IMG/VR virus record: IMGVR_UViG_2541047718_000009
Direction: 5' to 3' (one strand)
Length of the DNA: 24,270 nucleotides
From: a virus
Taxonomy: Duplodnaviria; Heunggongvirae; Uroviricota; Caudoviricetes
Shown here: piece by piece, positions 4,484 to 24,231 of the stretch
Position numbering within the stretch: position 1 is the first letter of the stretch
Layout of the letters: each line of letters starts with the position of its first letter
The notes under the pieces: model-generated
The model's database searches: none
Told to the model about the DNA's origin: nothing
Seen by the model: only the letters and a program-made list of their open reading frames with translations
Translations under genes and position numbers: made by a program

Positions 4484-5528
4484 ATTTCAGCGCCCGACGC
4501 TGGCAGAAAATATCAGTATGCTCCGTAACGATTTATTCGCCAGGCTGGACGTCAGCGACACGCTCCGGCGCATGGATGAAGACGTGCGGGCAAAGGTGTA
4601 TGCGGCAGCGCTGCATACGGTTTACGGGTACATCGATTATCTGGCAATGAATATGCTGCCTGACCTGTGCGATGAGTCCTGGCTGGCGCGACATGCTGCG
4701 ATGAAACGGTGTCCGCGCAAGGGGGCCACGGCTGCCAGCGGGTATATGCGCTGGGAAGGTGTCAGCGATGGCCTGAAGGTGACTGCCGGGAGCGTGATTC
4801 AGCGCGATGACCTGGTTCAGTACACGGCAACTGCCGATGCAACCAGCGCCGGTGGTGTCCTGCGTGTGCCGATCACTTGCTCAACTACAGGCGCGGTCGG
4901 TAACGCTGACGACGGTACGGCATTAATCCTGGTCACGCCGGTGAATGGTCTGCCGTCTTCCGGTGTTGCAGATACCCTGACTGGCGGATTCGATACTGAA
5001 GATCTGGAAACGTGGCGCGCCCGCGTCATTGAGCGGTATTACTGGACGCCGCAGGGCGGGGCTGACGGGGACTATGTCGTCTGGGCTAAAGAAGTGCCCG
5101 GCATTACCCGCGCATGGACATACCGTCACTGGATGGGAACGGGAACTGTCGGTGTGATGATTGCCAGCAGTGACCTGATTAATCCCATTCCGGAAGAATC
5201 AACGGAAACGGCGGCAAGACAACATATCGAGCCACTGGCCCCGGTGGCAGGCTCTGATTTGTATGTGTTCAGGCCGGTGGCACATACGGTGGATTTTCAT
5301 ATCCGTGTGACGCCGGACACACCGGAAATACGGGCTGCCATCACCGCCGAGTTGCGTTCGTTCCTGCTGCGTGATGGTTATCCGCAGGGAGAACTGAAGG
5401 TGTCGCGTATCAGTGAAGCGATTTCCGGTGCGAACGGGGAATACAGCCATCAGTTGCTTGCACCAGCGGACAATATCTCCATTGCAAAAAATGAGCTGGC
5501 AGTTCTGGGGACGATTTCATGGACGTGA
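4470..5528 (+). CDS. baseplate J-like protein (Mu gp47-like)
   Basis: 352-aa product in the conserved order; overlaps the upstream gene by 14 nt. Confidence 0.75.
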
Positions 5529-6103
5529 CAAACGATGATTACATCCGTCTGTTGTCGGCGCTGCTGCCGCCCGGTCCGGCGTGGTCAGCCAGCGATCCGG
5601 CGATTGCCGGTGCGGCACCGTCATTAACTCGTGTTCATCAGCGTGCGGATGCCCTGATGCGGGAGCTGGATCCGCGCACCACCACCGAACTGATAAATCG
5701 CTGGGAGCGTCTGTGCGGCCTGCCGGATGAATGTATTCCCGCAGGGACACAGACCCTTCGCCAGCGTCAGCAACGGCTGGATGCGAAGGTTAACCTGGCG
5801 GGTGGCATCAACGAGGATTTTTATCTTGCACAGCTTGCTGCCCTGGGCAGACCAGATGCCACCATCACGCGATACGACAAAAGCACGTTCACCTGCTCAT
5901 CGGCCTGTACTGACGCGGTGAATGCGCCGGAATGGCGGTATTACTGGCAGGTCAACATGCCAACCACCACCAACACCACCTGGATGACATGTGGCGATCC
6001 CTGTGATTCCGCACTGCGTATCTGGGGTGACACCGTTGTCGAGTGTGTGCTTAACAAACTCTGCCCGTCGCATACCTACGTAATTTTTAAATATCCGGAG
6101 TAA
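5519..6103 (+). CDS. tail protein, DUF2313 / YmfQ / Mu gp48-like
   Basis: 194-aa product ([27 protein letters not shown]...) in the position directly upstream of the tail fiber gene; overlaps the J-like gene end. Confidence 0.7.
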
Positions 6104-6106
6104 TCC

Positions 6107-7057
6107 ATGCATCGTATAGACACGAAAACCGCGCAGAAGGATAAGTTCGGCGCGGGTAAGAACGGTTTTACCCGTGGTAACCCCCAGACCGGCACACCTG
6201 CCACCGATTTGGATGATGACTACTTTGACATGTTGCAGGAAGAACTTTGCAGCGTGGTGGAGGCCTCCGGTGCCAGCCTGGAGAAGGAGCGGCACGACCA
6301 GTTGCTTACCGCGCTTCGTGCGCTGCTGTTAAGCCGCAAGAATCCGTTTGGTGATATCAAATCGGACGGCACGGTGAAAACGGCTCTCGAAAATCTTGGT
6401 TTGGGAGATGGCTCCGGGAGGCTTATACAGTGTCAGGTGTTTAAAAGCTCAGGTACATACACTCCGACAAAAGGCACAAGATTTATTATTGTTGAAATTG
6501 TTGGTGGTGGTGGGGCCGGTGGTGGTTGTCAGGTCGGTTATCCCAATAATGCTGCTTGTGGTGGCGGGGGGATGTCTGGGGAGTATGTTAAAGCTCGCGT
6601 GGATAATCCAACCGTAACTACTGTGACAATAGGATATGGTGGCACTGGTGCAAGTGCGTCGGTTGGTGCTCCCGGGGGAGCAACCTCTTTCGGCAATACC
6701 ATAATTGCCAAAGGTGGTCTTGGTGGGAATGTTCTTGCTGAAGGCACTGCTCCTGGGGTTGTTGGTCCGTATGGAGCATATACTGAGCCGGGATTTACAG
6801 GTGCCAATATTATCGGGTCTGGAAGCGGTTATAGCTCACCAGGCGTTCGGTATTCCGGCAGTCTGGCGATGGGGGGGCCTGGCGGCGATTCAATCCTTGG
6901 TGCGGGGGCTGGGTCACAAGCCATTGTAGGCGAAGGTATTAATGCTAATGGCCATGGTGGTGGAGGCGGTGGTGCCTGTGTCTACGGTGGAGCGACGCAG
7001 CAGCGTGCCGGAGGTAGCGGAATGGCTGGTATTGCAATCATTTGGGAGTATGCGTGA
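6107..7057 (+). CDS. tail fiber protein: conserved N-terminal anchor region plus glycine-rich C-terminal distal domain
   Basis: ATG 6107 with GGAG 6 nt upstream. The N-terminal ~95 aa ([40 protein letters not shown]...) resemble prophage side-tail-fiber N-termini. The C-terminal two thirds are Gly-rich (GGGGAGGG..., HGGGGGGA) and the coding DNA becomes visibly more AT-rich from about 6400. Confidence 0.8.
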
Positions 7058-7452
7058 TGAACTATGCCGTTATAGAAAATGGTGTTGTTACCAATATTGC
7101 TGTATGGGATGGTGAGAGTGCCTGGCAACCAACTAATGCGTTAGTTATACCTGTATCCGATAATGTAAGAATTGGTTGGTTCTATGATAAGGGAAAGCTT
7201 TCGTCACCTACGCAGCCGCCAAAAACACATGATGAATTACTTCGTGAGGCAGAGAATGAAAGACAGTGTCTGCTGGATAGTGCTAATAGTTTAATTATGA
7301 ACTGGCAGTCAGATTTGTTACTCGGTATTATAAGTGAAAATAACAAGGGCAATCTTTTATTATGGAAGGAATATGTTAATAGTTTAATGTCAGTGGATTT
7401 ATCTTTAGTGCCAGAAATAACCTGGCCTGAAAGGCCAGAGATAATACGTTGA
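7057..7452 (+). CDS. tail fiber assembly chaperone (Tfa)
   Basis: ATGA overlap with the fiber stop at 7055-7057. The product [25 protein letters not shown]... has the typical Tfa N-terminus and size. The ORF track begins 5 codons earlier at 7042. Confidence 0.75.
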   Translation: MNYAVIENGVVTNIAVWDGESAWQPTNALVIPVSDNVRIGWFYDKGKLSSPTQPPKTHDELLREAENERQCLLDSANSLIMNWQSDLLLGIISENNKGNLLLWKEYVNSLMSVDLSLVPEITWPERPEIIR

Positions 7453-7469
7453 AATTATGTGGTGTATTA

Positions 7470-7489
7470 TTAGGGGGAGGCCCCCCTAA
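7470..7489. terminator. GC-rich hairpin between convergent tfa and acyltransferase genes (putative bidirectional terminator)
   Basis: TTAGGGGG (7470-7477), loop AGGC, CCCCCTAA (7482-7489): a perfect 8-bp stem. No clean U-tract on either side. Confidence 0.4.
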
Positions 7490-7493
7490 TAAA

Positions 7494-8519
7494 TTAGGAT
7501 GTGATTATTTTTCTGATTTTATCGTTCTTCTCCAGAAAGTGATAAGATAATGATGCCATTGCAGTATTAATAACAAAAAGTACAAGCCAGCTAAAAAGAC
7601 CATAGTTAAGAACAAATGAATTTTTATTATGATCAAGGTAATATAATATAGGTAATTGCATCAAATAAAACGAATAACTTATATCTCCAAAGTAAATGAT
7701 CGCTCTGTTTACAATATTGTTTTTGATGTTGATTTTTGCCAGGTGCAATAACATAATTGATATCGCAGGAATTGTGAGATAGTTCACCCCCATGGAGTTA
7801 TTGTTTTGCTGGGTGGTAGCATACAGAAATAATAAAATGCTTAATAGCCATGTATAATGGTTAACACGATAGCCATTTAAAAAAAGTATTGCGATACAGA
7901 CGCCCACCACAAATTCTGGTAACCTGTATATTGGAGTTGCGTAATATACGGACCAAACTACAGGTCCCTGAATTATATCAGATAATGGGATTAATAATGC
8001 TGAAGATAAATATGAAAAAAGTAAAACATAAATTACATTGTTTTTGTTGATGTTTTTTATCAAAAATGGAAATAGGGCATAAAAAAACAATTCCACTGAT
8101 ATTGACCAGGTACCGCTAAAATTCCAAAAATCGAAGGTCTGATAAATCCATGATTGCATTCCAGTAACAAACAAGAATATGCTTGCAATCATTTTTAAAA
8201 AGTTTGCATCGCTGGATAACAAAAATGGGAGGGTTAAAAGCCCACAAAATAAATAGGCTGGAAATATTCTTGCTATTCGCTTCCTGAAGTAATTGTTTGA
8301 CAAGGAACCATAGTAATTATAAGTCAAAACAAAACCAGAAAGCATGAAGAAAATACTCATGCCAATGACGCCATTGCTAATGGTTTTATTAATAAGCTCT
8401 CCAAAATTAACGGGGACTCTCATGTTAATGTGAAAAATAAACACATAAAAAGCAGCTATAAATCTTAAGATTGTTACTCCATCCATTTTTTTTCTTGTTA
8501 TGTTATTGGTACTAGTCAT
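7494..8519 (-). CDS. acyltransferase family 3 integral membrane protein (putative O-antigen / surface polysaccharide O-acetyltransferase)
   Basis: 341-aa very hydrophobic product with the family signatures: N-terminal R..H (GVTILRFIAAFYVFIFH), FFMLSGF and W-S-I-S-V-E-L-F-F-Y. The gene is strongly AT-rich relative to the flanking tail genes. Confidence 0.8.
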   Translation of the reverse strand: MTSTNNITRKKMDGVTILRFIAAFYVFIFHINMRVPVNFGELINKTISNGVIGMSIFFMLSGFVLTYNYYGSLSNNYFRKRIARIFPAYLFCGLLTLPFLLSSDANFLKMIASIFLFVTGMQSWIYQTFDFWNFSGTWSISVELFFYALFPFLIKNINKNNVIYVLLFSYLSSALLIPLSDIIQGPVVWSVYYATPIYRLPEFVVGVCIAILFLNGYRVNHYTWLLSILLFLYATTQQNNNSMGVNYLTIPAISIMLLHLAKINIKNNIVNRAIIYFGDISYSFYLMQLPILYYLDHNKNSFVLNYGLFSWLVLFVINTAMASLSYHFLEKNDKIRKIITS

Positions 8520-8715
8520 TTGAGGCTTCTCATGATTAAAAGGTTCGTTATTAAAACCATTAATAATACTCTACTTACTTATCAAGTATCAACGTTTTTA
8601 TGTGTGGTTTTAATTAACAGAATGCAAGAATAAATAATAATATTCTGTTTGCGATTTTTTAAATAATTGCACTTACTACTCCTCAGTGCGAGGGAGAATT
8701 GAGGATGGAATTGGG

Positions 8716-8858
8716 GGCTCCGTCCAAAATTTACCCCTGAATAATGGGTGTAGGCCAGGCGATTAATTGCATCAGGCGTTCCTCGCCAGAAGGTGGCGAT
8801 CATCTATGATGTTGGTATATCGACACTGTATAAGAAGTTTCCGGTCGGAGATAAATGA
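8716..8858 (+). pseudogene. remnant of a Gin/Pin/Hin-family serine DNA invertase (C-terminal HTH only; frameshifted, catalytic domain absent)
   Basis: The frame ending at TGA 8856-8858 reads ARRLIASGVPRQKVAIIYDVGISTLYKKFPVGDK, closely matching the C-terminal DNA-binding end of Gin/Pin-type invertases as I recall them (...QVALIYDVALSTLYKK...). An upstream GG-rich stretch (about 8730-8750) is recognisable only across frameshifts, and no N-terminal catalytic domain is encoded in 8520-8715. Confidence 0.65.
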
Positions 8859-8918
8859 AACCGTAGCACGTCGTATGCAAGAAGATCGTGCTGCGGTTTA
8901 TGCTTATCACTTAAAGAC

Positions 8919-9788
<870 letters not shown>

Positions 9789-10094
9789 CTAATCCTTTGA
9801 ATTTACATAGTAAAAAAAGATACTTTTCCTCATAGTGTGAATTAATTTTATGTTTCGTTTGATGATTGGACCGGTCTCGAAAACCGTAGGCACGTAGTAT
9901 GCGTTAATTTATGAGCAAACTACTTGTCTGCTGTTTTTCTGTCATTAGTCGTATATAGAATGATTCTCTATGCCTAACAAAGCATCACTAGTGCTAGATT
10001 ACGTTGTAGTCACTGTTTAAATATCCAGACAAAACATTTCCTTCTGGGTTGAATGAGTGATAGAGTTTCACCCATTAGACCCCTTGGAGGAATT

Positions 10095-11528
10095 ATGTCT
10101 GAATTTGAAGTGTTGGCACAGCATCTGCTGAAGGAAGCCGAGGCGGAAGAAAAGCTGCGACAGGAAAATGATAAAAAGCTTATCGAGAAAGTGCTGGAAA
10201 TCTATGATCAGAAGTATGTGGCTGAATTACTGAGAAAAGTCGGAAAAAATGAGTGGAGCCGTGAAACCATTAACCGCTGGATTAATGGCAAGTGTTTACC
10301 AAAATCGTTGACGTCAGTAGAAGAGTCTCTTCTGCGTAAGATGCTACCAGAACCACCTGCAAACCATCCGGAATATGCTTTCCGCTTCATTGACTTATTT
10401 GCTGGAATTGGAGGGATACGAAAAGGTTTTGAGGCTATTGGAGGCCAGTGTGTTTTTACCAGTGAATGGAATAAAGATGCTGTGCGTACATACAAGGCCA
10501 ACTGGTTTAACGATGAACAGGTGCATAAATTCAATCTCGATATTCGGGAAGTCACGTTGAGTGATAAAACCGATGTATTGGAAACGGATGCTTATGCATA
10601 TATTGATGAGCATGTGCCGGATCATGATGTGCTTCTTGCGGGGTTCCCGTGCCAGCCATTTAGTCTTGCTGGTGTTAGTAAGAAAAACTCACTTGGCCGT
10701 GCGCATGGTTTTGAATGTGAAGCACAAGGAACACTTTTTTTTGACGTGGCACGTATTATACGAGCAAAAAAACCGGCAATTTTTGTGCTGGAAAATGTCA
10801 AAAATCTGAAGAGCCATGATAAGGGTAAAACTTTCAAAGTCATTATGGAGACCCTTGACGAGCTGGGCTACGAAGTTGCCGATGCTGCAGAAATGGGAAA
10901 AAACGATCCAAAGATTATCGATGGGAAGCATTTTTTGCCTCAGCATCGTGAACGCATTGTTCTGGTCGGATTTAGACGAGATCTGAATATTCACAAGGGG
11001 TTTACCTTGCGTGATATCAGTCGTTTTTATCCGGAACACCGCCCATCATTTGGTGAATTGCTGGAGCCTGTAGTCGACAGTAAATATATACTTACGCCAA
11101 AACTATGGGAGTACCTTTATAACTACGCCAAAAAGCATGCAGCCAAGGGGAATGGTTTTGGCTTTGGGTTGGTCAATCCTGAGAATAAGGAAAGCATTGC
11201 ACGCACACTTTCTGCCAGATATCACAAAGACGGATCAGAAATTCTTATTGATCGTGGTTGGGATATGGCAACGGGAGAGGCTGACTTTATGAATGAGAGT
11301 AATCAGGCTCGTCGACCACGCAGGCTGACTCCCCGAGAGTGCGCACGCCTTATGGGATTTGAAAAACCTGGAGGGAAACCATTCCGTATTCCGGTTTCAG
11401 ATACTCAGTCATATCGGCAGTTCGGTAACTCAGTTGTGGTGCCAGTATTTGAAGCTGTTGCCAGACTTCTGGAACCCTATATCCTCAAAGCTGTTTCTGC
11501 TGATGCTGGTAAGACTGGGCAGCCTTGA
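10095..11528 (+). CDS. DNA (cytosine-5) methyltransferase, Dcm / M.EcoRII-like
   Basis: C5-MTase motifs are present: [12 protein letters not shown] (motif I), [11 protein letters not shown] (motif IV, catalytic Cys), ENVKNL (motif VI), [10 protein letters not shown] (motif X). ATG 10095 is preceded by GGAGG at 10086-10090, giving a 477-aa product; the ORF track start at 10053 lacks an RBS. Confidence 0.9.
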
Positions 11529-11534
11529 GAACAC

Positions 11535-11557
11535 CTCCCGGCCTTTTAAGCCGGGAG
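11535..11557. terminator. hairpin between convergent methyltransferase and restriction genes
   Basis: CTCCCGGC (11535-11542), loop CTTTTAA, GCCGGGAG (11550-11557). Confidence 0.4.
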
Positions 11558-11562
11558 TCAGC

Positions 11563-12777
11563 CTATGATAGTTCAGCGTAAAGCTCTATCAGCTCAGTAA
11601 TGAATGCTCCGAGCGTTATTAATTCTTCTCTAACTGCTTCTGGGTATTTTTTATGTAAAGTTGATGGTACAACGAGTCTGACACCCGCATCTTTCATTTC
11701 TCGGTATTGTGCTGAAGAAACACCTTCTTGCAGTGTAAATAAATGTACCTGATGGATTTTATCTGCTTCATTCAGTATCTGACGCCAGCGATCTTTGCAG
11801 GTGGTCTTTACTGCCAGCATACGTAAGTTTTCTACAGGAAATTCAACGTTATGATATGCCTCTGCTGAAGGAAACAGGAAATCTGGTTTTTTATTACCTT
11901 CAGTAACTGCCTGAGTGGAGAAATGCCGTAGTCCGTGCTCGATAAAAAGCTTCTCTAGGTGAAGTTCAAGTGATTTGCCTGCCCTTGATTTACGTCGATT
12001 ACTGACAGAGTTGGCTAATGCAATAAACTCATCTACAGAATCGAATCCTTTCTTAATAATATCAAGAACATGTAATTCCTCGACGAGTAGAAAAATATCA
12101 TACTCGACACGCCGACGGTCAATCAGTTGCTCATCTGGATCCTTGGAGTTTTTAGCATAATGGCCAGCAGCATATTGAATAATTTCGTTTCCAGAAGGAA
12201 AACGCTTCTTCCAGTCTTCAGGAATAACATATTTATGATTTACTGGAGTTTGCTGAAGAGATAATCCGCCCAAAATTTGTCCGGCAGGGCCGGAAATTAG
12301 GGTTCCAGGTATGATTTCGCCAATAGCAGACTCGATGATATCCTCTTCATCGGGATTGACGCAGACCCATATATCTACCTCGGAACAGTCAGTGTTCTGT
12401 TCGTTTAACCTGAAAGCAAGAATTGTGAGAGCTCCTGTATTTTCAGGGTTCTGTAATGGACTTCCTCTCCCCCAGCGCGTAATTCTTTTTTCGTTTCGGG
12501 TCTTACCAAAATAACGGTTGTTGTAATAAATTGCGCGTGCTTGGGTATCAGGGCAATCATGGGATGATACATGCGCAGTAAGGAAGACTGAAGGGTTCAG
12601 TTCGCGAGTATGATTGATAGATGGAAAAAGCTTTTCAACGATATTTGAGGGGATATAAAGTCCGACCTGATGGCCACCTGTTGCGCCAGTGTCGTTTGCA
12701 GAAAGGCGTTTGATGTAGATAAAGTAATTCCCGCTTGCGATATCAAGCAGCCAGTTATGAAAAACCGACATATACAT
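11563..12777 (-). CDS. type II restriction endonuclease, EcoRII family (CCWGG-type)
   Basis: 404-aa product whose N-terminus (MSVFHNWLL..YIKRLSANDTGATGGHQVGLYIPS) matches my recollection of R.EcoRII. It is convergent with a Dcm/M.EcoRII-like methylase. Family assignment is by recall, not a search. Confidence 0.7.
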   Translation of the reverse strand: MYMSVFHNWLLDIASGNYFIYIKRLSANDTGATGGHQVGLYIPSNIVEKLFPSINHTRELNPSVFLTAHVSSHDCPDTQARAIYYNNRYFGKTRNEKRITRWGRGSPLQNPENTGALTILAFRLNEQNTDCSEVDIWVCVNPDEEDIIESAIGEIIPGTLISGPAGQILGGLSLQQTPVNHKYVIPEDWKKRFPSGNEIIQYAAGHYAKNSKDPDEQLIDRRRVEYDIFLLVEELHVLDIIKKGFDSVDEFIALANSVSNRRKSRAGKSLELHLEKLFIEHGLRHFSTQAVTEGNKKPDFLFPSAEAYHNVEFPVENLRMLAVKTTCKDRWRQILNEADKIHQVHLFTLQEGVSSAQYREMKDAGVRLVVPSTLHKKYPEAVREELITLGAFITELIELYAELS

Positions 12778-13005: not shown

Positions 13006-13028
13006 TGGTGGAGCTGGCGGAGTTTGAA
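13006..13028. repeat. distal att site of the P4-like element (direct repeat of the ssrA 3' end)
   Basis: TGGTGGAGCTGGCGG at 13006-13020 is identical to 23869-23883 (complement of the tmRNA 3' terminus ...CCGCCAGCUCCACCA), with AGTTTGAA versus GAGTTGAA continuing the similarity. A 14-nt perfect palindrome CCAATCATGATTGG overlaps its left edge (12995-13008). Confidence 0.7.
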
Positions 13029-13162: not shown

Positions 13163-13468
13163 CAGGAAAAAAATTTTTTTTCGAAAGAACTGTTCACACT
13201 GTTCACCTTTCTTTTTTCTCCTTTTATTTCAGAGTGATAGGTGGTGAATAATGGGTGAAGGGTGAACATTCGATTCTTCACCTCCGGCATTCTGCCGGTG
13301 TGACTCATACCGGTGATTAATCCCCCGTACTGAAATCACTCAGGAAGAAAAAAGTTTTTTTTGATTTGATTGTTCACACTGTTCACCTTTCGTTTTTCTC
13401 TTTTAATTTCAGTATGATAACGGGTGAATATACGGTGAAGGGTGAACACTGGATTGTTCACCTTCGGG
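13163..13468. repeat. crr-like cis replication region: two ~125-bp direct repeats carrying TGTTCACC / GGTGAACA iterons
   Basis: Unit 1 is about 13163-13286 and unit 2 about 13343-13468, period 180 bp. Exact octamers TGTTCACC occur at 13200-13207, 13380-13387 and 13455-13462, and GGTGAACA at 13261-13268 and 13441-13448, with further one-mismatch variants. Located immediately 3' of the alpha gene, as in P4. Confidence 0.75.
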
Positions 13469-13513: not shown

Positions 13514-15847
13514 TCAGGTTGTTGCAGGGGCGTCACATTTTGGCAGCCAGTCGCCGTAGCTTTCCTCTTTCAGCGTCAGGTTGGTCTGTATCCCCTGTTT
13601 GGTATGGCGCTTCTCGTAATTCAGCCCGTATTCTTTCAGCATCACCGGTAGCCCCAGTCCGAACATTTTCAGACTGAGTACATTCCGGTAGCCGTTTGCC
13701 TCCATGTAGGCCAGATAGGCGTGATAGAGGTATTTACGGTAATTACGCGGGATGATACTGGCGTTCCCCATATACATGCCGCTGGTCTGCGGCAGGGTTT
13801 CCAGATAGCCGATAAAATCAAACGTCGGGTCGGCATCCCGTTTGATGTTCAGTGCCTCGTCTGAGTTCTGCTGGGACTGAAGCAGTGACCGGGCGAGCAT
13901 CGGGTCGCTGAACTTCTGCATCAGGTGACGCACGATGACCGCCAGCTCGCGGGTGATTTTGTCCTTAAGCTGCGGGTCGCGCTCCTGCGGGGCTATCTGT
14001 TCCGGGAAGTGAATAATCACCCGCCGGCGTGACACGCCGCCGCTGCGGTCGGTGAAGCGCATCGGGTTATTGTTCACGGCCAGAATCACCGCCGGGATGT
14101 GCGTGGAGTACGCATCCCGGTATTTCGGGTCAACGGACACTGCATCGCCGCCGGTGATGGCCTTGAGTCCGGCTCCGTCGCCGCTCCATTTTTCCTGGTC
14201 CGGCAGGCGTATCAGTGAGAAGCCAGTTAACGCGGCACGTTCACGCGGGGATTCCAGCGTCTCAATGGTGGCCGACGTGGCGTTATCCTCACCGGCCAGC
14301 AGGGTGGCTATTTCGGCCATGATACTTTTGCCGCTGCCGCCGGGACCGGTCACCTCCAGAAAGAGCTGCCAGTCGTAGCGGTTTGCCAGCACCATAAACA
14401 GTGCGGCCAGAATCACGTCGCGTTTTTCCGCACGACCACCGGCAGCACGGTCAAGCCAGCGCCAGAACGCGGGAGCGTGGGTTTCCAGCGTTTCACCGTC
14501 CACCGGCGGGGTGAAATCCACATCACACAGGGTACGCATCCAGTGTGACGGACTGTGCGGGTGGAACGTACCGTTCTGCGTGTCGAGCACGCCGTTACGA
14601 AAGCCAATCAGGCGGCGGGAGGGGGCTTCCTGCTGCGGAATAATCAGCTTCAGGGTGTCCACCACGGAGGCCACCTTCCCGGAGGAGAACGGCGCGCGCA
14701 GACGCTGAAACAGCCCGGCCACATCCCGGGCAAAGTCCTGTGGCGGCAGCACCTTCCAGACACCATTTTCATAGCGGGACAGAAGCTGGCCGTTGGCATC
14801 GACCGCGAGCGCCTCGCCGTAATGCTCATAGATACGCATGGCCTTTTCGCTGGTACTCATGGCGGAAAACTCCGCTTCGCTCATGGTGTCGAACGGGCTT
14901 TCAGCCGGTGGCCGGATGGCATCATAAATGGCCTTACGGGTGGCTTCCCCGCCGTACTGCGTGAAGGCATCATTCCAGTCACCGAAGACCGGCGGCAGGG
15001 CAACAACACCTTCACACGCATCTGCGGCTGCGGCGGCTTTTTTCTGGCCGTCACCGCTGAGGTCACGGTCAGCAGCAAGGACAATCTGACAGGCCGGATG
15101 CTTCTGCCGGGCAAGGCTGGACAGAGAAAGGAGATTCACGGAAGAAAGCGCCACCATCACCGTTTCACCGGTCAGGTGATGCACGGTAAGTGCGGTCGCG
15201 TATCCCTCCGCTATCCACAGACGTTTTCCGGCCTGATTCTGTCCTTCAAGGGTGTGACAGGTGCCCCTGACCTGTCCGCCTTTCAGGGTGCGCTTACGGC
15301 CGTCAGCACTGATTAACTGAAGGTTAACCAGTTCGCCGCTGTCGTCATACAGTGGCACCACAAGGTCACCAGCACGCCAGCTCACGCCACCGGCTCTGTG
15401 TGTGCCGGTCAGCATCCGGCATTCCCGGCCGGGAAAGCCCTTGCGGGTCAGGTAGGCGTTACCGGTTCCGGGACGGGTTTTCGCTATCAGGGTTTGTGCC
15501 AGTGCGGCGGCGTTCTTCCGGGCAGCGTCTGTTTCAGCACCGGCGGCGGCCGTCACTGCCGGGTCAGCCGGGGGCAGGCTGCCGGTCACGGCAGCCACCT
15601 TTGCGGCCGCGTCGGACGGGGAGACACCAAACACCTTTTCAACCAGTTTCAGGCCGTCACCGGCACCACACTGATTGCAGTACCAGGTGCCGCGCCCCTC
15701 CCTGTCATCAAAACGGAAGCGGTCACTCCCGCCACAGACCGGACAGGGCTGATGACGGTTTTTCAGCACCTGAATCCCCAGCGCCGGGAGAATACGCGGC
15801 CAGTGGCCGAGCGCATGGCTGACGGTGGCGGTTACGTTCATTTTCAT
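13514..15847 (-). CDS. alpha: P4 alpha-type primase-helicase (replication initiator)
   Basis: 777-aa product with an N-terminal zinc-binding CPVCGG...CNQCG motif and a primase/D5-type helicase arrangement; I recall P4 alpha as about the same length. AAGGAG lies 9 nt upstream of ATG 15847. Flanked by iteron regions. Confidence 0.85.
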   Translation of the reverse strand: MKMNVTATVSHALGHWPRILPALGIQVLKNRHQPCPVCGGSDRFRFDDREGRGTWYCNQCGAGDGLKLVEKVFGVSPSDAAAKVAAVTGSLPPADPAVTAAAGAETDAARKNAAALAQTLIAKTRPGTGNAYLTRKGFPGRECRMLTGTHRAGGVSWRAGDLVVPLYDDSGELVNLQLISADGRKRTLKGGQVRGTCHTLEGQNQAGKRLWIAEGYATALTVHHLTGETVMVALSSVNLLSLSSLARQKHPACQIVLAADRDLSGDGQKKAAAAADACEGVVALPPVFGDWNDAFTQYGGEATRKAIYDAIRPPAESPFDTMSEAEFSAMSTSEKAMRIYEHYGEALAVDANGQLLSRYENGVWKVLPPQDFARDVAGLFQRLRAPFSSGKVASVVDTLKLIIPQQEAPSRRLIGFRNGVLDTQNGTFHPHSPSHWMRTLCDVDFTPPVDGETLETHAPAFWRWLDRAAGGRAEKRDVILAALFMVLANRYDWQLFLEVTGPGGSGKSIMAEIATLLAGEDNATSATIETLESPRERAALTGFSLIRLPDQEKWSGDGAGLKAITGGDAVSVDPKYRDAYSTHIPAVILAVNNNPMRFTDRSGGVSRRRVIIHFPEQIAPQERDPQLKDKITRELAVIVRHLMQKFSDPMLARSLLQSQQNSDEALNIKRDADPTFDFIGYLETLPQTSGMYMGNASIIPRNYRKYLYHAYLAYMEANGYRNVLSLKMFGLGLPVMLKEYGLNYEKRHTKQGIQTNLTLKEESYGDWLPKCDAPATT

Positions 15848-18388: not shown

Positions 18389-18460
18389 TCTGCAATGCGT
18401 CGTGTTGTTGTCCGGTGTACGTCACAATTTTCTTAACCTGAAGTGACGAGGAGCCGGAAA

Positions 18461-19195
18461 ATGTCTGACAACACCATCCCTGAATATCTGCAACCCGCAC
18501 TGGCACAACTGGAAAAGGCCAGAGTCGCTCATCTTGAGAACGCCCGCCTGATGGATGAGACCGTCACGGCCATTGAACGGGCAGAGCAGGAAAAAAATGC
18601 GCTGGCGCAGGCCGACGGAAACGACGCTGACGACTGGCGCACGGCCTTTCGTGCAGCCGGTGGTGTCCTGAGCGACGAGCTGAAACAGCGCCACATTGAG
18701 CGCGTGGCACGCCGGGAGCTGGTACAGGAATATGACAATCTGGCCGTGGTGCTGAATTTTGAACGCGAACGCCTGAAAGGGGCGTGTGACAGCACGGCCA
18801 CCGCCTACCGGAAGGCACATCATCACCTTCTGAGTCTGTATGCAGAGCATGAGCTGGAACACGCCCTGAATGAAACCTGTGAGGCGCTTGTCCGGGCAAT
18901 GCATCTGAGCATCCTGGTACAGGAAAATCCGCTCGCCAACACCACCGGCCATCAGGGCTACGTCGCGCCGGAAAAGGCTGTCATGCAGCAGGTGAAATCA
19001 TCGCTGGAACAGAAAATAAAACAGATGCAAATCAGCCTCACCGGCGAGCCGGTTCTCCGGCTGACCGGACTGTCAGCGGCAACACTCCCGCACATGGATT
19101 ATGAGGTGGCAGGCACACCGGCACAGCGCAAGGTGTGGCAGGACAAAATAGACCAGCAGGGAGCAGAGCTTAAGGCCAGAGGGCTGCTGTCATGA
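18461..19195 (+). CDS. sid: Sid, capsid size-determination external scaffold protein
   Basis: 244-aa product from ATG 18461 (GAGGAG 7 nt upstream), MSDNTIPEYLQPALAQLEKA..., which I recognise as P4 Sid. The ORF track begins 6 codons earlier. Confidence 0.85.
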   Translation: MSDNTIPEYLQPALAQLEKARVAHLENARLMDETVTAIERAEQEKNALAQADGNDADDWRTAFRAAGGVLSDELKQRHIERVARRELVQEYDNLAVVLNFERERLKGACDSTATAYRKAHHHLLSLYAEHELEHALNETCEALVRAMHLSILVQENPLANTTGHQGYVAPEKAVMQQVKSSLEQKIKQMQISLTGEPVLRLTGLSAATLPHMDYEVAGTPAQRKVWQDKIDQQGAELKARGLLS

Positions 19196-19692
19196 TTTAC
19201 TGTCCGTCGTGTGGACATGTTGCTCACACCCGTCGCGCACATTTCATGGACGATGGCACCAAGATAATGATTGCACAGTGCCGGAATATTTATTGCTCTG
19301 CGACATTTGAAGCGAGTGAAAGCTTTTTCTCTGACTGTAAAGATTCAGGAATGGAATACATTTCAGGCAAACAGAGATACCGCGATTCACTGACGTCAGC
19401 CTCCGGCAGTATGAAACGCCCGAAAAGAATGCTTGTTACCGGATATTGTTGTCGGAGATGTAAAGGCCTTGCACTGTCAAGAACATCGCGGCGTCTGTCT
19501 CAGGAAGTCACCGAGCGTTTTTATGTGTGCACGGATCCGGGCTGTGGTCTGGTGTTTAAAACGCTTCAGACCATCAACCGCTTCATTGTCCGCCCGGTCA
19601 CGCCGGACGAACTGGCAGAACGCCTGCATGAAAAACAGGAACTGCCGCCAGTACGCTTAAAAACACAATCATATTCGCTGCGTCTGGAATGA
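19192..19692 (+). CDS. delta: Delta, Ogr-family zinc-finger late transcription activator (tandem Ogr-like halves)
   Basis: 166-aa product with two CxxC...C...C units (MIYCPSCGHVAHTRR...CRNIYCSATF and ...CRRCKG...CTDPGCGLVF). ATGA overlap with the sid stop. Confidence 0.85.
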   Translation: MIYCPSCGHVAHTRRAHFMDDGTKIMIAQCRNIYCSATFEASESFFSDCKDSGMEYISGKQRYRDSLTSASGSMKRPKRMLVTGYCCRRCKGLALSRTSRRLSQEVTERFYVCTDPGCGLVFKTLQTINRFIVRPVTPDELAERLHEKQELPPVRLKTQSYSLRLE

Positions 19693-19765: not shown

Positions 19766-20338
19766 ATGGAAAGCACAGCCTTACAGCAGGCCTTTGACAC
19801 CTGTCAGAATAACAAAGCGGCATGGCTGCAACGCAAAAATGAGCTGGCAGCGGCCGAACAGGAATATCTGCGGCTTCTGTCAGGAGAAGGCAGAAACGTC
19901 AGTCGCCTGGACGAATTACGCAATATTATCGAAGTCAGAAAATGGCAGGTGAATCAGGCCGCCGGTCGTTATATTCGTTCGCATGAAGCCGTTCAGCACA
20001 TCAGCATCCGCGACCGGCTGAATGATTTTATGCAGCAGCACGGCACAGCACTGGCGGCGGCACTGGCACCGGAGCTGATGGGCTACAGTGAGCTGACGGC
20101 CATTGCCCGAAACTGTGCCATACAGCGTGCCACAGATGCCCTGCGTGAAGCCCTTCTGTCCTGGCTTGCGAAGGGGGAAAAAATTAATTATTCCGCACAG
20201 GATAGCGACATTTTAACGACCATCGGATTCAGGCCTGACGCGGCTTCGGTGGATGACAGCCGTGAAAAATTCACTCCTGCGCAGAACATGATTTTTTCGC
20301 GTAAAAGTGCACAACTGGCATCACGTCAGTCTGTGTAA
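19766..20338 (+). CDS. psu: Psu, polarity suppression / capsid decoration protein
   Basis: 190-aa product in the third position of the sid-delta-psu operon, with size and sequence style of P4 Psu. Confidence 0.8.
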   Translation: MESTALQQAFDTCQNNKAAWLQRKNELAAAEQEYLRLLSGEGRNVSRLDELRNIIEVRKWQVNQAAGRYIRSHEAVQHISIRDRLNDFMQQHGTALAAALAPELMGYSELTAIARNCAIQRATDALREALLSWLAKGEKINYSAQDSDILTTIGFRPDAASVDDSREKFTPAQNMIFSRKSAQLASRQSV

Positions 20339-20402: not shown

Positions 20403-20502
20403 GCATGCGTTTTCCTGCCTCATTTTCTGCAGACCGCACCATTCCCGGCGCGGTCTGAGCGTGTCAGTGCAACTGCATTAAAACCGCCCCGCAAAGCGGG
20501 CG

Positions 20503-20521
20503 GGCGAGGCGGGGAAAGCAC
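20503..20521. other. cos site (P2/P4-type 19-nt cohesive-end sequence)
   Basis: GGCGAGGCGGGGAAAGCAC at 20503-20521 matches the P2/P4 cohesive-end sequence as I recall it, and lies between psu and the int-proximal cargo as in P4. Confidence 0.7.
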
Positions 20522-20558
20522 TGCGCGCTGACATGATAATTATTATTTTACAGCGCGC

Positions 20559-20588
20559 TTGATTTGCACTTTATGGTACACATATGAT
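20559..20588 (+). promoter_or_regulatory. candidate sigma70 promoter for the hotspot helicase gene
   Basis: TTGATT (20559-20564), 18-nt spacer, TATGAT (20583-20588); AGGA RBS at 20646-20649, 7 nt before ATG 20657. Confidence 0.45.
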
Positions 20589-20656
20589 TGTGTTGAGAAT
20601 TCAGATGTTGTTCAACGTGAACGCAGTTTGTACTTTATTTAAAAAAGGATGTTTAC

Positions 20657-22465
20657 ATGGAAAATTGTTTTAATTTTAAGCCTAATTTAGCAAACCTAAG
20701 AGATTGCCAGAAAGAGGCGTATTTAACGGTTAGAGATTACTTTGCAGATCCCGCTAATACAGAAAATCATATTTTAGTACAGTTGCCTACGGGGACAGGA
20801 AAGTCAGCGGTAATTGCTATATCGCCTTATGAAGTAGCTAAAGGTAAAGTTTTGGTTCTAACACCAAACTTGACACTTGCAAATCAAATTGAGCAAGATA
20901 TTGATATATTCGAAAATCCCACTAGTAATATATATAAGAAATTAGGGATTTTTTCTGAAGACTTTTATACAGAAAGCGAGGCTTATCCTCTGCGGTTAAA
21001 TGATAGTGTTAGTTCGAATGATATAGATGAGCATCAAATAATTATAGCTAACTATCAACAGTTAAATGACGTTGAAAAATGGTTTAAGGGTAAAGAAGAA
21101 CAGGTTGATTTAATAATTATAGACGAGGCTCATCACCAAAAAGCTAAAACTTATCAGGAAGTCATTGGCTTTTTCCCTCAGGCTAAAATTTTAAGCCTTA
21201 CTGCAACTCCTTTTCGTTCTGATGGTAAGCCTCTAGATGGCAAGGTTGTTTATACTTATCATTTTTCAGACGCCATAAGAAATGGATACATTAGGAATAT
21301 TAAGGTCTGTGATATAGCCCCAGAGTCTATTTCGTTAGTAGGTTTGTTTAATGATAAGGATGGTAAAGAATACTCTCTCGAAGATATTCTTGAGTTAAAA
21401 GAAGAAGCATGGTTTAGACGTGGAATCGCCTTATCACAAGATTGTTGCGACAGCATAGCAAGTAAATCTTTTGAAAAGCTTTTGGAGCTAAGAAATTCAA
21501 ATCCAAATGATACTCACCAAATTATTGCAGCAGCAATATCAAAACGACATGCTAGAGAATTTGTTAAGCCAGCATTTGAACGTCTGGGCTTGAAAGTCGG
21601 CTTGGTTAGCACTGATGAGAAAAATAATGAACATACTATACAGAAGTTAAAGCAAGGAAAAATCGATGTGATAGTCAATATTGGTATGCTTGGTGAGGGA
21701 TTTGACCATAAGCCTTTAGGTGTGGCAGCTATTTTCAGACCTTTTGCTTCTTTGAATCCATATATCCAATTTTTAGGAAGAGTTATTAGAGAAAATGGTA
21801 GTACAAAAAATTGCTGGGTTGTTTCTCATTTAGGGTTGAACCAAATATCTAGATTCAATGAGTTTAAATTGTTTGATGCTGATGATAAGGAGATTCTTGA
21901 AAAGCTTTTGTCTGGAAAGAATACTGAAGGGGTAGGTGGTGAATCTTCTTTTGTCGATATACAAGACAGAAACCCAATTGAAGTTACAATTAAAGAAATT
22001 GGTGATAGTCTTGTGGAGTTTAACGAAGATTATGTAGATCTTTCAAAAGTGGATAAAGTTGAAAGAGCGATTAAAAGGCTTAATGAGGGCGAGGCTAGAG
22101 AATTATTGACTAGACTCGGTCTTGATGCAAATTCAATAAATGCTGTTACGACCCGCAAAAAAAGAGTTAAACCTATAAATAAGAAAAAAGCTGCGCAATC
22201 TAGTTTAAATGAAGCGTCTAAATCTATTGCTGTGGATATACTCTCCGAATTAAATTTGAAGATGTACGATAGAAACTTTAACCCATTGAAAACGAATTTT
22301 GTCTGGGTTAAATCAAAAATTGATAAAGAAATAAACAAGAAGCTAGGGATTAAGCAAGCCGAAAGAAAAAAAGTGACAAATGCTCAGTATGATGAATTTT
22401 CTAAAAGTGGTGAATTGAATTTAATAAGAGAAAACTGCTTGGAGTATTTTAAAAGCAAGGTTTGA
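20657..22465 (+). CDS. SF2 DEAH-box helicase-domain protein (ResIII/HsdR-like motor) with lysine-rich C-terminal extension; candidate anti-phage defense protein
   Basis: Helicase motifs in order: Q-like DCQKEA, motif I LPTGTGKS, Ia LVLTPNL, II IIIDEAHH (DEAH at about 21123-21134), III SLTATP, V MLGEGFD, VI QFLGRVIR. The C-terminal ~200 aa are unrecognised and K-rich. The gene is strongly AT-rich against a GC-richer P4 backbone. Confidence 0.75.
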   Translation: MENCFNFKPNLANLRDCQKEAYLTVRDYFADPANTENHILVQLPTGTGKSAVIAISPYEVAKGKVLVLTPNLTLANQIEQDIDIFENPTSNIYKKLGIFSEDFYTESEAYPLRLNDSVSSNDIDEHQIIIANYQQLNDVEKWFKGKEEQVDLIIIDEAHHQKAKTYQEVIGFFPQAKILSLTATPFRSDGKPLDGKVVYTYHFSDAIRNGYIRNIKVCDIAPESISLVGLFNDKDGKEYSLEDILELKEEAWFRRGIALSQDCCDSIASKSFEKLLELRNSNPNDTHQIIAAAISKRHAREFVKPAFERLGLKVGLVSTDEKNNEHTIQKLKQGKIDVIVNIGMLGEGFDHKPLGVAAIFRPFASLNPYIQFLGRVIRENGSTKNCWVVSHLGLNQISRFNEFKLFDADDKEILEKLLSGKNTEGVGGESSFVDIQDRNPIEVTIKEIGDSLVEFNEDYVDLSKVDKVERAIKRLNEGEARELLTRLGLDANSINAVTTRKKRVKPINKKKAAQSSLNEASKSIAVDILSELNLKMYDRNFNPLKTNFVWVKSKIDKEINKKLGIKQAERKKVTNAQYDEFSKSGELNLIRENCLEYFKSKV

Positions 22466-22496
22466 GTTTCGGGCCTCTTTAATGGGGCCCTTCGGC

Positions 22497-23729
22497 TTAA
22501 CTGTGTACTTTATTACCCCACCATTGCATGAGTTCTTCTCTTTGTTTTATATAGGTCGAGCGATTGTAAGCTCGCCTAATTTCATTTTTATCAACATGGG
22601 CTAAAGCAGCTTCAATGGCGTCCGCGTTGAAACCGGCTTCATTCATTGCTGTACTCGCAATAGAACGGAGGCCATGAGCGACTAGTTTTCCGCCAAAACC
22701 AATTCGTTTTAAAGCAGCATTCGCAGTTTGGCTATTCATTGGCTGTTTAGGGTCATTTCTACTAGGAAATATATGTTCACGATGTGCACTAATAGGTTTC
22801 ATTACTTCTAAAATATCTAACGCCTGAGACGATAAAGGAACTATATGTTCTCTTTTGGCCTTCATTCTTTCTGCTGGAATAACCCATATTTTTGCATCAA
22901 GATCAATCTCAGCCCAACGAGCTCCTGAGGCCTCCGATGGACGTACAAGGGTGAGGAGTTGCCACTCGATAAGACAGCGAGTCGGAATAGACAAATTTGA
23001 CATAACGAGAGAACGCATTAGCTTAGGTAATTCTTCTGGCCGCAGTGTCGGCATGTTTTGCTTTTTGGGCTTCTCAAAGGCCATTCCAACCCCGGAAGCT
23101 GGATTGGCATCGATCAGCCCTGTATTTACAGCGAAGATCATTATCTCGTTAATGCGTTGCGCCAGTCGACGTACAGTCTCTAGCGCCCCACGAGCTTTGA
23201 CTGGCTCAAGCGCTTCAACCAATGTTCGGGCTTTGATTTGCTGAATGGGGAGCTCACCGACGGCAGGGAATACATCTTTCTCCAATGAGCGCCAAATGTC
23301 TTTTGCGTAATCAGGGGTAACGCTTTTGCTTTTGAGCTGAAACCAATTAGTGGCAACCGTTGAGAAAATACTGCTCTGAGCGATTTGCTGTTGTTCCTCT
23401 GCAACTTTGGCCTGAATTTGAGGGTCGATTCCATTAGCCAATAAAGCAAGATAATCCGCTCTTAACCTCCGGGCATCTGCAAGTGAAAGAGCGGGGAAAG
23501 CTCCTAGCCCCATCATTGTCCGCTGCTTTGTCGTTGGGCGTTGATAACGGAAACGCCAGAGTTTTTTCCCGTTTGTTTTCACTATCAGGAAAAGCCCCTC
23601 GCCATCATGCAGTGTTAGATCTTTCTCTAACGCTTTAGCTCGCAGAATTTCAGTGTTGGTCAGGGGGCGTGTCGTTCTTGCCACTGTGGCCGCTCCTTCA
23701 TTAATTGGTATACGCGTTTGGGTAAACAT
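22497..23729 (-). CDS. int: tyrosine site-specific integrase (P4 / CP4-57 IntA type)
   Basis: 410-aa product with the catalytic signature near the C-terminus (HGLRSIAST ... RRAYNRSTYIKQR, the H-x-x-R and catalytic Y). Directly adjacent to, and co-oriented with, the ssrA 3' end. Confidence 0.9.
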   Translation of the reverse strand: MFTQTRIPINEGAATVARTTRPLTNTEILRAKALEKDLTLHDGEGLFLIVKTNGKKLWRFRYQRPTTKQRTMMGLGAFPALSLADARRLRADYLALLANGIDPQIQAKVAEEQQQIAQSSIFSTVATNWFQLKSKSVTPDYAKDIWRSLEKDVFPAVGELPIQQIKARTLVEALEPVKARGALETVRRLAQRINEIMIFAVNTGLIDANPASGVGMAFEKPKKQNMPTLRPEELPKLMRSLVMSNLSIPTRCLIEWQLLTLVRPSEASGARWAEIDLDAKIWVIPAERMKAKREHIVPLSSQALDILEVMKPISAHREHIFPSRNDPKQPMNSQTANAALKRIGFGGKLVAHGLRSIASTAMNEAGFNADAIEAALAHVDKNEIRRAYNRSTYIKQREELMQWWGNKVHS

Positions 23730-23868: not shown

Positions 23869-24231
23869 TGGTGGAGCTGGCGGGAGTTGAACCCGCGTCC
23901 GAAATTCCTACATCCTCGGTACTACATGCTTAGTCAGTCTTTACATTCGCTTGCCAGCTGCGGACGGACACGCCACTAACAAACTAGCCTGATTAAGTTT
24001 TAACGCTTCAACCCCAGGCAGGGCTTCCACGCGATCTCTTTTGGGTTTGACCTCTCTTGATCCCCGTCCTAAGAGCGGAGGCTAGGGAGAGAGGGCTCTA
24101 AGCAGGTTATTAAGCTGCTAAAGCGTAGTTTTCGTCGTTTGCGACTATTTTTTGCGGCTTTTTACGAGGCCAACCGCCCCTCGGCATGCACCTTGGGTTT
24201 CGCAAATCCCGTCGAATCCAGAATCAGCCCC
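23869..24231 (-). ncRNA. ssrA: tmRNA (SsrA), complete
   Basis: The reverse complement of 23869-24231 reads GGGGCTGATTCTGGATTCGACGGG ... GCAAACGACGAAAACTACGCTTTAGCAGCTTAA (tag ANDENYALAA) ... GGTTCAACTCCCGCCAGCTCCACCA. It is 363 nt and matches E. coli ssrA as I recall it. A TATACT -10 element sits upstream at 24246-24251 on the minus strand. Confidence 0.95.

Follow-up and report, generated by a model that had tools for sequence, protein, structure and literature searches.

The variable cargo slot of a P4-like satellite, contained in a window of 24,270 nt (the whole stretch of DNA that was analysed), was found to hold a single gene, designated X here, that encodes a stand-alone SF2 helicase. 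We propose that X is a self-sufficient, nuclease-free anti-phage DNA translocase that, as the sole cargo of the hotspot, would protect both its host and the satellite against other phages, a proposal that we regard as about evenly balanced between right and wrong. We infer the defence role of X itself from its position in the hotspot, its solo arrangement in three genera, its homology to the helicase of the Crouga defence system, the purifying selection acting on it, its conserved promoter and Shine–Dalgarno sequence, its retention in Cronobacter, the lack of a recurrent partner, the absence of full-length family members from phage genomes, the defence-island and plasmid settings of its relatives, and the fold of its motor.

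The P4 cargo slot and its single gene

The satellite measures ∼10.9 kb and is bounded by att repeats, with ssrA as its integration site (Table 1). The 19-mer at which the conserved backbone ends is, going by its sequence, presumably the P2/P4 cos site. X is the only gene between cos and int, and a mere 31 nt separate its stop codon from that of int. The RefSeq annotation (NZ_CP032204) gives the integrase as a 395-aa form ending at 23684, and lists the X product as WP_021513175.1 with the description 'DEAD/DEAH box helicase'. An antisense ORF at 22030–22338 (102 aa, TTG start) was dismissed as likely to have arisen by chance in AT-rich DNA.

A preliminary description of this DNA had placed X as the single cargo gene of the P4 psu–int hotspot, which the psu, cos and int flanks together with the att repeats confirm. 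This hotspot is variable and dispensable and houses anti-phage systems (Rousset 2022, PMC9122126), and the order psu/cos–X–int within att repeats identifies X as its cargo in the sense of that study. Anti-phage systems of the hotspot are also described in a preprint in which six of eight randomly picked unknown loci were protective (bioRxiv 10.64898/2026.02.27.708500). The ∼209 nt following psu are common to 2260 of 5426 complete E. coli genomes with other cargo genes, and genes annotated as HEPN, SIR2 or ATP-binding/ATPase occupy the same slot in other P4 elements; the slot is a variable, defence-type cargo position of the satellite. An EcoRII pair is also present in the window, at 10053–12777, outside the att boundaries.

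With a GC content of 35 %, the gene is compositionally foreign, and the earlier claim that it is more AT-rich than its P4 flanks was borne out: GC is 0.34–0.36 over 20501–22500, compared with 0.51–0.59 for sid/delta/psu and 0.42–0.50 for int. X was further said to have its own sigma70-like promoter and ribosome-binding site. By count, promoter-type matches are not above chance (5 sites found versus 7.2 expected); on the other hand, the −35 and −10 elements are kept at the loci of all three genera (E. coli, Enterobacter and Pantoea), even though ∼160 nt are inserted upstream in Pantoea, and the sequence AAGGATGTTT at the Shine–Dalgarno is invariant across them. The predicted promoter, from which X is probably transcribed, moves together with the gene.

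Table 1. Features of the satellite and of gene X, with positions numbered from the first letter of the window
Feature	Position	Strand	Basis or remark
P4 alpha primase-helicase	13514–15847		
Ogr/Delta	19192–19692		Pfam
psu, polarity suppression protein	19766–20338	+	Pfam Psu E=1.3e-88; left hotspot boundary
cos 19-mer (presumed), GGCGAGGCGGGGAAAGCAC	20503–20521	+	Exact match, 0 expected by chance; conserved P4 backbone ends here, with the cargo starting shortly after it
Sigma70-like promoter (predicted), TTGATT-18 nt-TATGAT	20559–20588	+	Consensus scan, 9/12 positions
Shine–Dalgarno AAGGA	20645–20649	+	7 nt before ATG
Gene X, stand-alone SF2 helicase, 602 aa	20657–22465	+	ORF, ATG start
X motor domain, residues 13–410	20693–21886	+	RecA1, beta insert, RecA2, conserved block 389–407
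X acidic linker, residues 411–505	21887–22171	+	Largely disordered; small low-confidence hairpin and two helices
X basic C-terminal five-helix bundle, residues 506–602	22172–22462	+	Specific to the X helicase clade
P4-type tyrosine integrase	22497–23729	−	Pfam Arm-DNA-bind_3, Phage_int_M, Phage_integrase; right hotspot boundary
att core	23869–23891	.	3′ end of ssrA; direct repeat with 13006–13028, 23 nt, 87 % identity
ssrA (tmRNA)	23869–24231		Satellite integration site

Domains of the X protein

Pfam recognised ResIII at residues 13–187 (E=1.6e-27) and Helicase_C at 273–378, and no domain past residue ∼400. All SF2 motifs are present (Q18, GTGKS 46–50, DEAH 156–159, TATP 182–185 and QFLGRVIR 371–378), with GTGKS (K49) and DEAH invariant in a family alignment of 65 sequences; the motor is thus complete and of the ResIII/HsdR DEAH type, in agreement with the preliminary description. 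Its predicted fold is nearest to the motors of type I HsdR and RadD, HsdR being the most similar. What had been described as a lysine-rich tail of ∼200 aa proved to be two different regions. The first is an acidic, disordered linker (pI 4.66 over residues 411–500) that is variable in the family alignment and has a pLDDT of <50 at residues 417–449 and 488–501 of the AF2 model. Only the bundle is basic and lysine-rich, residues 501–602 comprising 19.6 % Lys with a net charge of +12 and a pI of 9.9.

Pfam and structure prediction yielded no nuclease or known effector fold in X, which upholds the statement that the tail is not assignable to either. Scans against PADLOC, NCBIfam, Pfam and PHROGs returned generic motor matches only, with phrog_16, a broad 'DNA helicase' family of phages, as the PHROGs match (E=1.9e-57), and matches in a PDB sequence search were likewise confined to the motor. 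The profile-HMM check that had been suggested recognised the motor, in PADLOC and Pfam, and made no assignment from these libraries beyond it. Most short matches to the C-terminal domain are fragments of helicases from the same clade, so we rejected the notion that it occurs as a small protein by itself.

Distribution, neighbourhoods and candidate function

Of 5426 complete E. coli genomes, four contain the full gene, three at 100 % identity over the query and the fourth at 99.9 %. Orthologues with 82–88 % identity sit alone in the same slot of Enterobacter and Pantoea P4-like elements. Among P4-like elements in general, only a minority possess the gene. For these solo copies dN/dS is 0.073 overall (motor 0.04, linker 0.11, bundle 0.16), indicating purifying selection, and in Cronobacter an intact X lies beside a broken integrase and so has outlived the decay of its satellite. 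An all-against-all comparison of neighbouring ORFs at 17 X-family loci revealed no recurrent partner gene, and no full-length family member was found among 50,697 phage genomes. Distant relatives with 45–58 % identity occur in many phyla; such identity across very distant lineages argues for intense horizontal transfer, which is typical of immune genes. The X type is found mostly in uncultivated lineages and is rare in Enterobacterales, whereas the Crouga type is common in Proteobacteria.

The distant relatives reside in restriction–modification (R-M) operons, within islands that also contain Mrr/DndB-like genes, or next to serine recombinases, and plasmid-borne members of the clade lie beside a Shedu gene or form the cargo of a small plasmid (9.95 kb). 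A profile scan of genome contigs gave seven close loci, and for R-M neighbourhoods we pooled 13 independent non-enterobacterial loci, at six of which the X-family gene forms part of, or immediately adjoins, an R-M-like module, the modules being of differing types. The gene is located between hsdS and hsdR with overlapping stop and start codons (L006), 3–4 nt after a C5-MTase/REase (L005 and L012), directly upstream of Mod and Res (L013), downstream of an MTase and ResIII pair (L023), or beside a DUF1156 MTase and an SNF2/NOV_C helicase (L018). At two more loci an MTase is found within ∼2 kb.

In the mechanism that we propose, X would load onto invading DNA, the basic bundle would recognise DNA or the target, and the acidic linker might act as an autoinhibitory tether; ATP-driven translocation or unwinding would then derail phage replication, recombination or packaging without cleavage or, alternatively, expose phage DNA to resident nucleases. 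The roles given to linker and bundle are speculation, and the AF2 model places the domains relative to one another only tentatively. Several observations speak against a self-sufficient defence protein. Crouga, the sole tested relative, gives weak and narrow protection, is described only in a preprint and, if it works, does so as a two-gene unit; X is also rare in E. coli. The frequent operonic linkage to R-M genes elsewhere suggests that family members may usually depend on a nuclease partner. To our knowledge, moreover, in all well-understood helicase defences the motor is accompanied by a nuclease or another effector, of which X has none, and we know of no established case of an SF2 defence protein that acts alone and lacks a nuclease.

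The R-M linkage could also mean, unlikely as we consider it, that X works as an accessory motor in conjunction with R-M systems or other nucleases and does nothing decisive alone. It would then boost, guard or regulate resident R-M enzymes or nucleases of the host (RecBCD, for instance), perhaps through the processing of restricted DNA or the detection of anti-restriction proteins, and in P4 would use host nucleases. The neighbourhoods described above, the similarity of the motor to HsdR and the lack of a nuclease in X itself all favour such a role. Nevertheless, R-M genes are the commonest neighbours in defence islands, so that adjacency may reflect plain clustering; the partners are of types I, II and III, a diversity that speaks against any one dedicated physical partner; and a gene carried as cargo by a mobile satellite or a 9.95-kb plasmid should function in naive hosts. 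Moreover, no R-M gene lies within the P4 att boundaries, the EcoRII pair being outside them. It is improbable, in our view, that X is instead a helicase of the life cycle of satellites or mobile elements, acting in replication, recombination, establishment or anti-defence for the benefit of the element rather than host immunity. The family does ride on P4-like satellites, large-serine-recombinase elements and plasmids, X matches phrog_16, and RadD-like motors act in recombination. P4, however, is already equipped with the alpha primase-helicase, X is confined to a minority of P4-like elements and missing in full length from phage genomes, an intact copy was kept after satellite decay in Cronobacter, and an anti-restriction gene would be unexpected inside R-M operons. 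The psu–int interval is, in addition, variable and dispensable (Rousset 2022, PMC9122126).

Two further explanations carry even less weight. X could be an inactive orphan, i.e. the helicase half of a Crouga-type pair that lost its partner, as the DUF6156 gene conserved downstream of the Crouga helicase has no counterpart here, and the short interval between the X and int stop codons leaves no space for one. We judge this quite improbable, as a DUF6156-type partner was found in 0 of 17 X-family loci, X belongs to a separate clade at 34 % identity to Crouga and is no recent derivative, and its dN/dS of 0.07, intact motifs and promoter conserved across genera do not suggest inactivity. That X is a housekeeping DNA-repair helicase (RadD/XPB-like) present in the island by chance is very improbable indeed, and the match to a housekeeping helicase that would have overturned the preliminary description was not obtained: X scored 92.3 bits against a curated equivalog cut-off of 720 for RadD (YejH, NF053632), and the match was limited to the motor. 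The 60 listed matches of the C-terminal model do not include RadD, whose C-terminal domain is unrelated to that of X. X is accessory, horizontally mobile and AT-rich (GC 35 %), its full gene occurs in just four of the 5426 complete E. coli genomes, and it is located in a satellite hotspot.

Comparison with known systems

Type I HsdR shares the SF2 ResIII motor with X, and was rejected as its identity because the defining nuclease and hsdM/hsdS features are missing. HsdR (EcoR124I, PDB 2w00; fragment 3h1t) has an N-terminal PD-(D/E)xK nuclease, whereas the X motor starts at residue ∼13 and Pfam detects no HSDR_N domain; HsdR works with HsdM and HsdS partners, whereas this satellite encodes neither and has X as its sole cargo. 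No correspondence could be assigned between the C-terminal bundle and the helical domain of HsdR, and the NCBIfam EcoAI HsdR model gave 48.6 bits against a cut-off of 550. SauUSI-type enzymes (type IV, ATP-dependent; PDB 7clg, 953 aa compared with 602 aa for X) combine an N-terminal PLD nuclease with a C-terminal reader of modified DNA. X matches their motor only (positions 309–568 of 945 in the PADLOC mREase_IV model, chain residues 308–379 of 7clg), has no extra N-terminal domain and ends in a helical bundle, so SauUSI/mREase_IV was rejected too. A possible precedent for a solo, nuclease-free SF2 system is FS_HsdR_like, a single-gene HsdR-like system of PICI satellites (DefenseFinder). Rst_HelicaseDUF2290, a T7-specific, two-gene system (helicase and DUF2290), likewise places a helicase in the P4 hotspot (Rousset 2022, PMC9122126). 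It was rejected as the cargo here is a single gene lacking the DUF2290 partner; the 17 PADLOC families listed as matching X do not include this system, for which PADLOC may have no model.

The closest comparison is with Crouga (Unknown 3A/3B, pFD421), a two-gene P4-hotspot defence system that is reported to reduce plaquing modestly, about 10–80-fold on Bas01, Bas11 and Bas13, pFD421 being the only construct of this kind assayed there (bioRxiv 10.64898/2026.02.27.708500, 2026). BLASTP aligned X to the Crouga helicase (3B) with 34 % identity over residues 14–378 (E=4e-62) and gave no alignment for the C-terminal ∼220 residues, whilst hhalign (probability 100, E=1.3e-68) extended over 518 columns including the start of the C-terminal bundle. 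These alignments make X a member of a sister family, homologous over nearly its full length and not an orthologue. Both genes occupy the P4 int–cos hotspot, and both helicases, of ∼600–620 aa, consist of motor, linker and helical C-terminus and lack a nuclease Pfam domain. They belong to different clades and point in opposite directions within the hotspot, and the second Crouga gene, encoding DUF6156 (3A, 140 aa), overlaps the helicase stop codon, whereas X has neither a partner nor room for one. Within the Crouga family this partner is retained even in P. aeruginosa (E=1e-18), whilst phmmer with 3A found no match in any neighbouring ORF of the 17 X-family loci. A 14-nt string from the X start is absent from the supplementary files of the preprint, including its synthesised-sequence datasets, as are the accessions of the X-carrying E. 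coli strains from its supplementary tables, and nothing on X was found in the literature on DUF6156, FS_HsdR_like and the protein accessions or in a domain-centric screen (NAR 2026). The claim of an undescribed determinant therefore needs narrowing, as a homologue of the Crouga helicase has been reported; X is set apart by its lack of the DUF6156 partner, and what is new here would be a partner-less variant of a barely known kind of helicase rather than something wholly undescribed.

More broadly, though we give this rather little credence, X-type helicases might be widespread, mobile, nuclease-free immune motors whose range spans E. coli satellites, CPR bacteria and Nanoarchaeota; they would act through translocation only, or serve as a universal plug-in for unrelated nucleases, with the linker and bundle forming a new sensor or autoinhibition device. 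This would explain why such genes occur in type I, II and III R-M operons and yet are solo in P4 and on small plasmids. If X protects alone, it would be one of very few SF2-motor defences without a nuclease, toxin or signalling partner, and one would have to ask how translocation by itself can stop a phage; X may, alternatively, reveal a generic helper recruited by many R-M systems. As X and Crouga represent the same motor lineage without and with DUF6156, the role of the partner is directly testable.

Satellite setting of the helicase gene

The genes flanking the helicase gene place it in a P4-like satellite (Table), and E. coli AR_0013 has an identical locus whose RefSeq annotation is consistent with this layout. 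The cos site was located with the 19-nt P2/P4 cos sequence. As the 3′ end of ssrA recurs (23 nt) at 13006-13028, forming the other att site, the P4-like element measures ∼10.9 kb; within this att-delimited backbone the helicase stands alone between psu/cos and int, and the preliminary description had rightly recognized it as the single cargo of the psu-int hotspot. The marked AT-richness it had reported relative to the flanking P4 genes was also evident (34-36 % GC vs 51-59 % for sid/delta/psu and 42-50 % for int). Regarding the gene's own promoter and ribosome-binding site, a sigma70-like site and a Shine-Dalgarno sequence are present; although sigma70-like matches are no commoner in the window than in shuffled sequence (five seen, 7.2 expected), the hexamers and Shine-Dalgarno sequence are kept at the orthologous loci of Enterobacter and Pantoea, despite a ∼160-nt insertion between cos and promoter in Pantoea ananatis relative to E. 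coli and Enterobacter (locus L003, ∼7720-7880), making the site credible. A 102-aa antisense ORF (22030-22338, minus strand, TTG start) inside the 3′ part of the gene probably reflects no more than chance in AT-rich sequence.

Features of the window and their positions
Feature	Position	Strand	Remark
DNA circularisation protein N, gp44/GpP hub, Baseplate_J, glycine-rich fibre protein	within 1-7057		Mu-like
Acyltransferase	7494-8519		AT-rich island
LEM-3-like GIY-YIG protein	8919-9743		AT-rich island
C5 methylase	10053-11528		Complete EcoRII-type R-M pair, with EcoRII
EcoRII	11563-12777		Complete EcoRII-type R-M pair, with C5 methylase
sid-like ORF	18443-19195		
Ogr/Delta	19192-19692		
Psu	19766-20338		Pfam E = 1e-88
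P2/P4 cos	20503-20521		19 nt
sigma70-like site	20559-20588		TTGATT-18-TATGAT
Shine-Dalgarno			AAGGA, ends 7 nt before helicase ATG
Helicase	20657-22465	+	602-aa ORF
P4-type integrase	22497-23729	-	Right of helicase
ssrA (tmRNA)	23869-24231		

Two 120-nt direct repeats (13168-13287 and 13348-13467; 82 % identity, 180 nt start-to-start) occupy part of the stretch from attR to the alpha primase gene and fit the P4 cis replication region, crr, which has two 120-bp repeats 60 bp apart. Outside the att repeats, the AT-rich stretch at 7494-12777 seems to be another island, stacked at ssrA, with the satellite on one side and Mu-like tail genes on the other. The latter belong to the Mu-like prophage tail and baseplate genes of 1-7057 (GC ∼0.51-0.59), which are unrelated to the satellite.

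An intact motor with a two-part tail

Pfam models identified ResIII (residues 13-187, E = 1.6e-27), DEAD and Helicase_C (273-378), with no match in the last ∼200 residues. The complete ResIII/HsdR-type DEAH motor recognized earlier was borne out; K49 of Walker A (GTGKS) and the DEAH box (156-159) do not vary across an alignment of 65 family sequences. Profile searches against PADLOC, as had been proposed, and NCBIfam likewise found only the motor, with PbeA and mREase_IV as the best PADLOC matches (∼55 bits) and RadD from NCBIfam far under its cut-off (92 vs 720 bits); among PDB sequences, the SauUSI-type 7clg again matched the motor only. Because the motor begins at residue ∼13, there is no space for an N-terminal nuclease of the HsdR or SauUSI type.

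With 65 homologues as input, AlphaFold2 (mean pLDDT 77) gave a confident two-lobed motor (1-410), disorder at 417-449 and 488-501 and, in the region suggested for structure prediction (∼400-602), a bundle of five helices at 506-601 that was also predicted with confidence (pLDDT 82-92). The linker (∼411-505) is acidic (pI 4.7) and the bundle very basic (19.6 % Lys, net +12, pI 9.9), so that the tail previously called lysine-rich is really two modules of opposite charge. An exhaustive search of 1.84 billion representative proteins with the tail profile matched only 55; those inspected, and all with Pfam domains, were helicases of the same clade or C-terminal fragments of them. Across the wider clade, the nearly invariant tail positions correspond to R510, N547 and R570 of our helicase.

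Distribution, selection and neighbourhoods

The full gene occurs in four of 5426 complete E. coli genomes, and the ∼209-nt psu-to-cargo stretch in 2260 of them, with adjoining genes annotated HEPN, SIR2 or ATP-binding. Enterobacter asburiae and Pantoea ananatis have orthologues of 82-88 % identity, likewise at ssrA and in the same position between psu/delta and int. In Cronobacter (L029, GCA_045792455.1, 4983-8280) an intact copy (87 % identity) has outlasted the decay of its satellite: psu/delta genes are absent and the adjacent P4-type integrase is split (6841-7518 and 7811-8092). Between E. coli and Enterobacter dN/dS is 0.073 (motor 0.04, linker 0.11, bundle 0.16); in comparisons with Pantoea synonymous sites are saturated. 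Full-length relatives (45-58 % identity) occur in Neomarinimicrobiota, Patescibacteria, Nanoarchaeota, Melainabacteria, Elusimicrobia and Gordonia, a spread that indicates extensive horizontal transfer; no full-length family member was present in 50,697 phage genomes. Plasmid-borne clade relatives (32-36 % identity) include a 602-aa protein (32 % identity, 99 % coverage; L026, 655-2463) encoded by the largest cargo gene of the mobilizable A. baumannii plasmid pAC1633-3 (9950 bp, MOBQ), adjoining a HipA/HTH pair (HipAB), and one adjoining a Shedu nuclease gene in a Rhizobium plasmid island.

In six of 13 independent loci outside Enterobacterales, the family gene is inside or directly adjoins a module resembling R-M. 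In the type I operon of L006 it separates hsdS from hsdR, and its stop overlaps the start of hsdR. It begins 4 nt downstream of a C5-MTase/HinP1I-like fusion at L005, and 3 nt downstream of a C5-MTase with a weak EcoRII-C-like protein at L012. At L013 it directly precedes a Mod-like MTase and Res-like helicase, at L023 it lies downstream of an N6_N4 MTase and ResIII protein, and at L018 it is divergent from a DUF1156 MTase and SNF2/NOV_C helicase. An MTase lies within ∼2 kb at L010 and L021, and Mrr_cat, a DndB-like protein, DUF6119, HTH/M78 pairs and serine recombinases are found at other loci. The DUF6119 protein (622 aa) is directly downstream of the family gene (L017, 8912-10780), and HTH and M78-peptidase (ImmA/IrrE-like) genes are nearby in two unrelated loci (L008, 5776-6915; L017, 11503-12347).

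Proposed role and relation to Crouga

The SF2 motor, of the dsDNA-translocase type seen in HsdR and RadD, is intact and under selection. Together with the lack of a nuclease, the clade-specific basic bundle on its flexible acidic tether, the conserved promoter, the solitary position in a hotspot devoted to anti-phage cargo and homology to the Crouga helicase, this leads us to infer a self-sufficient anti-phage determinant working on invading DNA. A defensive role is probable. The helicase would translocate along or unwind invading DNA at the expense of ATP, with the bundle as putative recognition module and the linker possibly autoinhibitory, and would thereby disrupt phage replication, recombination or packaging, or lay the DNA open to host nucleases. 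We hold the non-nucleolytic mechanism less firmly than the defensive role, and give the proposal as a whole an even chance.

The main rival, a nuclease-coupled accessory motor, would account for the puzzling link to R-M operons and is unlikely, though worth weighing; that adjacency reflects either functional coupling or ordinary defence-island clustering, which 13 loci are too few to separate, and the protein itself has no room for an N-terminal nuclease. A helicase serving the mobile element's life cycle would suit the satellite location and is improbable, the Cronobacter copy having persisted beside a broken integrase. That the gene is inactive, orphaned from a two-gene system, as its missing partner might imply, is very improbable: decay is opposed by the low dN/dS, the orthologues in the same slot and the intact Cronobacter copy. 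The RadD match raises the thought of a housekeeping RadD-like helicase, which at that score we consider barely credible.

The helicase gene does have a precedent. Among eight unknown P4-hotspot loci picked at random and tested for phage protection was Unknown 3A/3B (plasmid pFD421), or Crouga, a ResIII/DEAD/Helicase_C helicase (3B) with a DUF6156 protein (3A), marked 'RM-like system?' (bioRxiv 10.64898/2026.02.27.708500). Its protection was modest, ∼10-80-fold on Bas01, Bas11 and Bas13 (raw data, bioRxiv 10.64898/2026.02.27.708500), and it is itself known only from this 2026 preprint. The Crouga DNA (Dataset E1 of the preprint) contains a 619-aa helicase ORF and an overlapping 140-aa ORF. Over residues 14-378 our helicase is 34 % identical to that of Crouga (E = 4e-62), a much closer match than to any database model, and profiles of the two families align at 100 % probability over 518 columns (E = 1.3e-68), including the first bundle helix ('KP.DKRKA' in ours vs 'KRP..ARK' in Crouga), which makes them sister families with the same general layout. 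The preliminary observation was correct and its reading largely reasonable, but 'undescribed' holds only in part. The partner is conserved in Crouga: a P. aeruginosa helicase of 60 % identity has downstream of it, and overlapping it, a 142-aa ORF matching 3A (E = 1e-18), whereas our helicase gene has no DUF6156 gene and stops 31 nt from the int stop. Neighbouring ORFs of 17 family loci included no DUF6156-like protein or other recurrent partner, the sole repeated neighbour being a large serine recombinase. The gene is a cheap, well-defined experimental target, and with Crouga it forms a natural contrast between related helicases without and with a DUF6156 partner.
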